15,503 bases of DNA from Promethearchaeota archaeon Loki_b32. Lineage in GTDB: Archaea > Asgardarchaeota > Lokiarchaeia > Sigyniarchaeales > SOKP01. The stretch spans positions 1 to 15,503 of the forward strand of contig NJBH01000058.1 in the NCBI GenBank assembly GCA_005223125.1. Direction: 5' to 3'. The translations under genes and the position numbers were made by a program. Below the pieces are notes generated by a model. It ran no database searches, was not told the origin of the DNA, and worked only from the letters and a program-made list of their open reading frames with translations. This document shows, one piece after another, positions 4,696-7,640 of the stretch; position 1 is the first letter of the stretch; each line of letters begins with the position of its first letter.

Positions 4696-4820
4696 GCCAG
4701 TGTTGCCGAGTCGTAAGGCGATGGCCTGCAGACTTCTTCTCGAAGGATGATAGCCATTTATCATGGGTTCAAAATGTTCTTTTGGGTAAATTGAGCATGA
4801 AATTCCCATCACTGGCTCCA
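4696..4820 (+). tRNA. tRNA-Cys(GCA) with two introns (4732-4751 at 37/38; 4774-4803 at 59/60) and encoded CCA
   Basis: Acceptor stem GCCAGTG/CACTGGC, U73 (4817) and CCA (4818-4820). D-stem GCC/GGC; anticodon stem ATGGC/GCCAT with CT-GCA-G; T-stem ATGGG/CCCAT. Removing 20 and 30 nt gives a 75-nt cloverleaf with T-loop TTCAAAT. Both introns have BHB geometry. Confidence 0.93.
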
Positions 4821-4835
4821 TTTTTTTTATTTTAT
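4821..4835 (+). terminator. Oligo-T archaeal-type terminator after tRNA-Cys
   Basis: TTTTTTTTATTTTAT immediately follows the CCA. Confidence 0.6.
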
Positions 4836-7436: not shown

Positions 7437-7640
7437 TTTCAAAACCAATCTAGTTTGTATTATAAACAAAAATTAACTATGAGAAATATCTAAATTTAGT
7501 CTATTTAATTTTTGTTGGCAATTAAGTAAATAATGAAAATAGAATATTATCTAATTATTTCACATTATAATGAAATTATTTATATAAAAAAGCTTTTATT
7601 TATCTTGAAAATCAAATTATTAAATAGTTACTCAAGGTTT

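Follow-up and report, generated by a model that had tools for sequence, protein, structure and literature searches.

Introns at position 59/60 of tRNAs occur in several archaea, the Thermoproteales among them. More generally, BHB introns are established in D-loops, T-loops, variable regions and acceptor stems (PMC3241643), and the lysine of a Crenarchaea-specific loop of EndA is known to confer broad specificity on the enzyme (Hirata et al. 2011, PMC3241643). An EndA of (alpha-beta)2 type with an L1 loop has also been described for Asgard archaea (Kaneta et al. 2018, PMC5829648). Asgard tRNA genes can harbor multiple introns at non-canonical positions (Valentin-Alvarado et al. 2024, PMC11291895). 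Goswami et al. (2026, bioRxiv 10.64898/2026.10.13.758758) reported heavily interrupted Asgard tRNAs, with T-arm introns at canonical BHBs and repeated recent gains, and found almost no intron families common to different tRNA types within one genome. For Thermoproteales, intron families that are common to several tRNA types have been described (summarised in PMC4033280 and PMC4090602). A close counterpart of the present gene comes from ARMAN-2, in which pre-tRNA-Cys(GCA) carries a 59/60 intron and pre-tRNA-Pro(GGG) is interrupted at both 53/54 and 59/60 (Fujishima et al. 2011, PMC3239211).

Here we analyze a tRNA-Cys(GCA) gene of Promethearchaeota archaeon Loki_b32 (G000 in our genome set), a MAG of 4.13 Mb that is 95.5% complete and has a GC content of 29.9%. 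The window is an entire 15.5-kb contig of this genome, labelled C35. The gene occupies positions 4696-4820 on the forward strand and measures 125 nt including two introns. Its anatomy and its relatives lead us to infer that it is spliced twice, and we consider it very likely to be functional.

Architecture of the tRNA-Cys gene

The exons and introns of the gene, along with the T-run that follows it, are listed in Table 1. Joining the exons in silico (minus 4732-4751 and 4774-4803) yields a 75-nt tRNA with U73, an encoded CCA and a perfect 7-bp acceptor stem, and ARAGORN calls this molecule tRNA-Cys(GCA). The GCA anticodon, the U73 discriminator and the class I cloverleaf are accompanied by a CysRS in the same genome (catalytic domain, 354 bits), which together make up the features expected of tRNA-Cys. 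The sequence of exon 1 is identical in 11 congeners and differs by one mismatch in 4 more, and where relatives have no T-loop intron, exon 2 runs straight into exon 3. The eight-T run presumably acts as the transcription stop, as is general for archaeal poly-T termination.

Table 1. Features of the tRNA-Cys(GCA) locus of Loki_b32, with positions numbered along the window
Feature	Position	Strand	Description	Basis
Exon 1	4696..4731	+	Acceptor 5' strand GCCAGTG; D-arm GCCG/AGGC with 7-nt loop; anticodon stem 5' strand ATGGC; loop CTGCAG; anticodon GCA (4728-4730); G37 (4731)	Sequence; ARAGORN cloverleaf of the spliced 75-mer
Intron 1	4732..4751	+	20 nt; canonical position 37/38; relaxed BHB	ARAGORN -i; geometry scores
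Exon 2	4752..4773	+	A38; anticodon stem 3' strand GCCAT; variable loop TTATC; T-stem 5' strand ATGGG; T-loop nucleotides 54-59 TTCAAA	Sequence; ARAGORN
Intron 2	4774..4803	+	30 nt; non-canonical position 59/60 in the T-loop; strict hBHBh'; family F1	
Exon 3	4804..4820	+	T60; T-stem 3' strand CCCAT; acceptor 3' strand CACTGGC; discriminator U73 (4817); encoded CCA (4818-4820)	
Eight-T run	4821..4828	+	Immediately 3' of CCA	Sequence

The native, unspliced locus is not called by ARAGORN, either with or without intron mode, and gives no match to the Rfam tRNA model at the gathering threshold or at E 0.01. When only intron 2 is deleted, ARAGORN -i detects the gene and assigns intron 1 to position 37/38. 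A preliminary description of this DNA had placed the tRNA-Cys(GCA) gene and both introns, had supposed that standard scanners could miss the gene, and had proposed running ARAGORN on the spliced 75-mer. All its coordinates and pairings are borne out by the sequence, the gene is indeed overlooked by ARAGORN and the Rfam tRNA model, and the spliced form is recognized by ARAGORN as described above.

Intron 2 folds into an hBHBh' motif with 5/4/5 pairs in the T-stem, central helix and outer helix. The T-stem ATGGG/CCCAT pairs 4763-4767 with 4805-4809, the 4-bp central helix TTCA/TGAA pairs 4768-4771 with 4798-4801, and the outer helix TGTTC/GAGCA pairs 4775-4779 with 4793-4797, one of its five pairs being G.U. 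The bulges are AAA (4772-4774) and ATT (4802-4804). The intron thereby displays the 3-nt bulges, the 4-bp helix and the flanking helices that characterize archaeal BHB introns. Cuts after the second base of each bulge leave the 7-nt T-loop TTCAAAT, just as the preliminary description had it for this strict motif. Among the 30-nt deletion registers that we compared, 59/60 is the only one that combines a BHB with the exact mature sequence.

Dinucleotide shuffles of intron 2 match its BHB quality at these boundaries in 0.11% of cases. A BHB motif alone is nevertheless no evidence, because such motifs are common in an AT-rich genome; a scan of Loki_b32 returned 108,031 strict BHB-like motifs with 3/4/3 pairs. 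The BHB of intron 2 carries weight only alongside the restored cloverleaf and the data from relatives. The predicted folding energy of the T-arm minihelix speaks against the BHB, since the MFE structure, a 6-bp outer helix with a 6x6 internal loop (-12.8 kcal/mol), is favored over the BHB conformation (-9.7 kcal/mol).

Intron 1 adopts a more relaxed motif, composed of a 6-bp exon helix, a 4-bp outer helix CTTC/GAAG and the 3' bulge ATA. Its central helix CUGC/GAUG forms two of four pairs (C-G, U.U, G.A, C-G), and since only these two are present, its cleavage depends on an assumed broad specificity of EndA. The preliminary description passes over this weakness. The intron was also considered as a C/D-box or other guide RNA, an idea that we rejected, the near-C-box GATGATA not being conserved in orthologs.

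Splicing machinery and the tRNA set of Loki_b32

Excision at a non-canonical position calls for a suitable EndA, a point made in the preliminary description, and the genome holds two EndA genes that appear to fit this role. The EndA alpha (202 aa, C18:184174-184779) has its best match in the catalytic alpha subunit of A. pernix (3P1Z_B, E 2.4e-35). The Tyr/His/Lys triad is kept, with Y143/H151/K182 aligning with Y125/H133/K164 of A. pernix, and K60 aligns with Lys44 of the Crenarchaea-specific (L1) loop. In the beta-like paralog (205 aa, C2:78431-79045), Ser replaces the catalytic His, as expected of a structural beta subunit. An RtcB is found as well (568.6 bits). Judged from these sequences, the host encodes a predicted endonuclease for non-canonical positions along with an RNA ligase.

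The EndA alpha gene directly adjoins one of two paralogous genes for the A-type ATPase catalytic subunit (C18:184810-186150 and C18:191686-193023). The two are 73% identical and lie ~5.5 kb apart, and the pair is also present in most congeners.

We infer that the tRNA-Cys precursor is transcribed, cleaved and ligated, in a pathway that could run as follows. A precursor of 125 nt, with two protein-spliced introns, would be transcribed and then met by a heterotetramer-type EndA composed of catalytic alpha subunits with the broad-specificity loop and non-catalytic beta subunits. This enzyme would cleave after base 2 of each 3-nt bulge, one pair of cuts falling at the relaxed BHB of the anticodon arm (37/38) and the other at the strict hBHBh' stacked on the T-stem (59/60). 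Ligation of the three exons by RtcB would give the 75-nt tRNA with anticodon GCA, U73 and CCA, which CysRS would then charge.

An archaeal tRNA set is expected to comprise ~45 tRNAs, of which Rfam and ARAGORN find about 20 in Loki_b32 (21 and 23, respectively, with no Cys in either). A strict-BHB scan combined with ARAGORN, allowing single and paired introns, contributed only ~12 credible additional tRNAs, and the census remains incomplete at ~35 tRNA-like calls in total. At least seven other tRNAs of this genome (Ser-GCU, Thr-UGU, Ala-like, Arg-CCU, Lys-UUU, Met-CAU and Ser-GGA) contain T-loop introns of 29-34 nt at 58/59 or 59/60, indicating that T-loop introns are routine in this organism. 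In addition, Gly-UCC is interrupted at 53/54. The hidden intron-bearing tRNAs are spread over contigs C4 (19335-19364 and 18445-18474), C11, C37, C45, C48, C57 and C29.

The preliminary description had raised the case of an intact tRNA-Cys elsewhere in the genome. A second tRNA-Cys did not turn up in Loki_b32 with ARAGORN, Rfam, the BHB-aware scan or a BLAST search for the spliced 75-mer, the last of which returned just the three exons of the locus itself. Because the census is incomplete, the status of this gene as the only tRNA-Cys rests on BLAST and the BHB-aware scans; a highly divergent or multiply split second tRNA-Cys may lie elsewhere in the genome. The spliced 59|60 junction is also matched exactly over 16 nt at C67:32248-32263. 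This hit, which sits in apparent coding sequence and outside any tRNA context, was dismissed as chance, with ~0.06 such matches expected by composition.

The tRNA-Cys genes of congeners

A pattern based on the 3' exon retrieves tRNA-Cys in 38 of 54 congeners, with 0 matches in the control. The recovered genes fall into type A, present in 16 genomes including Loki_b32, and type B, present in 22. Among type A genes, those of G011, G017, G045, G054, G059, G006, G051 and G068 contain only the 37/38 intron and have an uninterrupted T-loop. The mature tRNA-Cys predicted for Loki_b32 is matched by those of G011, G017, G054 and G059, and that of G045 departs from it by a single variable-loop difference. 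Introns at both 37/38 and 59/60 are found in Loki_b32 and G003, a combination of 37/38 and 58/59 in G067, and an intron at 45/46, with or without that at 37/38, in G007, G016, G014, G020 and G062. Intron 1 is absent from G007, G016 and G014, and in three congeners the sole intron is ~30 nt long and located in the variable region.

The survey of orthologs envisaged in the preliminary description thus finds the 59/60 intron in 2 of the 38 recovered tRNA-Cys genes (G000 and G003) and precise intron-less T-loops in several others. With such a distribution, the 59/60 intron of tRNA-Cys appears to be an addition. G003 is an independent assembly, and its homologous intron has the same length of 30 nt and the same 59/60 site. 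It is syntenic with Loki_b32 and shows the highest neighbour-gene identity, 73% vs at most 67%. A clade of these two genomes is not supported by the tree of the syntenic GNAT neighbour, which is star-like. AtpA, with two paralogs per genome, gives no clear species order, and neither does the RpoB domain, which is 95-99% identical everywhere.

On Rfam RF00005, those single-intron orthologs that we scanned reach 54-56 bits, above the cut-off of 29. Compensatory changes among orthologs turn T6-A67 into C6-G67 in the acceptor stem and ATGGG/CCCAT into GGGGG/CCCCT in the T-stem, pointing at selection on the spliced fold. Within a single genus, tRNA-Cys offers a clean natural experiment, in which introns sit at 37/38, 45/46, 58/59 or 59/60, or are missing, while the mature sequence is near-invariant.

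Type B genes are mostly intron-free. In five of them (G044, G066, G005, G015 and G069; loci L106, L135, L136, L133 and L137), an insert of ~29 nt is located in the anticodon loop immediately 5' of the anticodon (~33/34), which is another non-canonical site. The variable region of type B genes (22 congeners, loci L104-L138; e.g. L104, G001:C133 ~7476-7560) spans 12-14 nt and includes a small covarying hairpin, TGC-loop-GCA, with loops such as GAAA and GCAA. Too short to be a BHB intron, this hairpin resembles an additional mini-arm on a class I tRNA.

Two other readings of the locus can be weighed against these data. It might be a decaying tRNA-Cys pseudogene with two insertions that are never removed, the cell being served by another, undetected tRNA-Cys. 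The silence of the standard scanners and the gaps in the genome-wide tRNA census would be in line with such decay, but the scanners equally miss over half of the tRNAs expected in Loki_b32, and no other Cys-like sequence was found in the genome. Moreover, the exons match those of intron-poor orthologs at 100% identity, stem changes across species are compensatory, both insertions sit exactly where their excision restores the cloverleaf, and the same 30-nt insertion persists in G003. We regard decay as highly improbable and keep to a functional gene whose introns would both be spliced out. The other reading concerns the exact cut in the anticodon arm. As intron 1 and exon 2 both begin with A, cleavage one base later, at 38/39, would produce the same mature RNA as cleavage at 37/38, and the poor central helix at 37/38 leaves some room for that register or for a non-BHB route. 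At 38/39, however, the geometry is much poorer, with one of four central pairs and no exon helix, in Loki_b32 as well as in every ortholog that permits this register. At 37/38, central pairs in other type A orthologs mostly number three of four, and three orthologs form all four. A shifted cut or a non-BHB route is accordingly very unlikely, and excision of intron 1 at 37/38 is the reading we retain.

Intron family F1 and comparison with known systems

A BLAST search with the intron region hit a different tRNA in G010 and G023. This tRNA has the acceptor strand GGGCCAT and the anticodon loop CTTATAA; after in-silico splicing, ARAGORN mostly assigns it to Ile(UAU), and tRNA-Ile(UAU) is its probable identity. 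Its T-loop intron in G010 is 31 nt long, is located at 59/60 and has a 21-nt identical run in common with Cys intron 2. When the 3' end of this tRNA was surveyed in 45 congeners, introns of this family, termed F1, were found at 12 loci in 11 genomes, and a second Ile(UAU) intron family, at 58/59, in three genomes; the Ile(UAU) genes of Loki_b32 and G003 have no T-loop intron. A pattern search for F1 in 154 genomes of the order retrieved matches in the own genus only, plus one dissimilar match in another family. The F1 matches are confined to Ile(UAU) and Cys, and the control gave 0 matches. The 59/60 introns of Cys and Ile(UAU) are hence similar introns at the same position in different isotypes. 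BLAST of intron 2 against Loki_b32 revealed no paralog, so that multiple copies within one genome were not observed.

In the Ile(UAU) gene of Loki_b32 (C57:25989-26170, +, locus L139), ~58 nt are inserted in the D-loop, and the 37/38 site is interrupted by an intron of 54 nt. The Ile(UAU) genes of congeners additionally harbor introns of ~30 nt in the T-loop and the variable region.

Alignment of the Cys and Ile T-arms with their introns (alignment A1) gives a mean column identity of 87%. In this alignment 95.8% of the BHB cells are paired, and one pair of the outer helix switches between CG and UA in five sequences. Intron 2 of the Loki_b32 Cys gene is 81% identical to the Ile intron of G010 and no closer, at 77%, to the Cys intron of G003. 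From these sequences, Cys intron 2 would derive from the Ile(UAU) family F1, and on balance we favor a transfer in which the T-loop of tRNA-Cys, nearly identical to that of tRNA-Ile(UAU), received the intron from the latter. With GGGTTCAAA and TCCC bordering the intron site in both T-arms, recombination through microhomology is possible; RNA-level routes or an unsampled third source are possible alternatives to it. If the Ile-to-Cys transfer is true, insertion would seem to be guided by microhomology of the T-arms. The three markers (AtpA, RpoB and GNAT) leave both its direction and its timing tentative.

The likeness of the Cys and Ile(UAU) introns could also stem from convergence, driven by the same TTCAAAT loop, BHB geometry and AT-richness, or from a third, unsampled mobile source. 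Global identity gives this account some ground, as unrelated AT-rich T-loop introns of ~30 nt are already 50-63% identical and shuffling with the last 6 nt held fixed yields up to 81%. Furthermore, no genome has both hosts occupied, Ile(UAU) being intron-free at this site in both G000 and G003, and Goswami et al. [quoted passage not shown] Because percent identity is a weak measure for AT-rich 30-mers, we relied on the longest identical run instead. The run of 21 nt between Cys and Ile(UAU) exceeds the null maximum of 14 nt in 20,000 shuffles, and ~15 nt of it, in the loop and the outer helix, are free of constraint from the exons. By comparison, the 50-63% range is that of the seven other T-loop introns of Loki_b32 measured against Cys intron 2, several of them in identical TTCAAAT loops. 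The F1 pattern is limited to one genus and two hosts, and a third source would still imply that the intron is mobile. We therefore hold convergence or a third source to be rather unlikely, and the Ile-to-Cys transfer remains the reading we prefer.

The preliminary description overstated the novelty of the gene on two counts. A 59/60 intron in tRNA-Cys(GCA) had been published for ARMAN-2 (PMC3239211), and interrupted Asgard tRNAs with BHB introns in the T-arm were likewise known (PMC5829648, PMC11291895, bioRxiv 10.64898/2026.10.13.758758). The ARMAN-2 gene resembles the present one in isotype and in the 59/60 position, with T-loop introns being cut by a broad-specificity EndA. In contrast, the ARMAN-2 Cys intron is a relaxed hBH processed by an epsilon2 EndA, whereas that of Loki_b32 is a strict hBHBh' in a genome with an EndA of predicted (alpha-beta)2 type. 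The two introns look like independent origins in unrelated phyla.

The EndA of Aeropyrum pernix (PMC3241643; PDB 3P1Z) aligns with the Loki_b32 enzyme over 160 residues, in which the triad and the loop lysine are kept. Assays of the A. pernix enzyme have covered introns of the anticodon loop and the D-loop as well as a BHL minihelix, whereas the Asgard enzyme is known from sequence. The present gene provides short substrates for assays of Asgard EndA, namely a T-arm minihelix of 47 nt (4763-4809) for the strict BHB and, for the relaxed one, an anticodon minihelix of 37 nt (4721-4757).

The resemblance to the multi-intron tRNAs of other Asgard archaea (PMC5829648, PMC11291895, bioRxiv 10.64898/2026.10.13.758758) extends to the (alpha-beta)2 EndA with an L1 loop, the combination of 37/38 and T-arm introns, the canonical BHB in the T-arm, repeated lineage-specific gains and the failure of some annotators. 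In this respect the gene is one more case of a known pattern, that of intron-riddled Asgard tRNAs hidden from common annotators. The focal families of Goswami et al. (2026) are Freyrarchaeaceae, Jordiarchaeaceae and Atabeyarchaeaceae, and neither Lokiarchaeia nor Promethearchaeia is named in the main text. What is new here is the cross-isotype family F1 of Ile(UAU) and Cys, a modest and small addition that bears on how archaeal tRNA introns arrive.

In Thermoproteales, closely similar introns at the same position in different isotypes point to copying between tRNA genes, and such families recur within one genome across many tRNA types (summarised in PMC4033280 and PMC4090602). Unlike these, F1 is one family with two hosts, and both hosts are never occupied in one genome. 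It becomes visible only when genomes of one genus are compared, and represents the kind of sharing that the within-genome test of Goswami et al. (2026) would miss.
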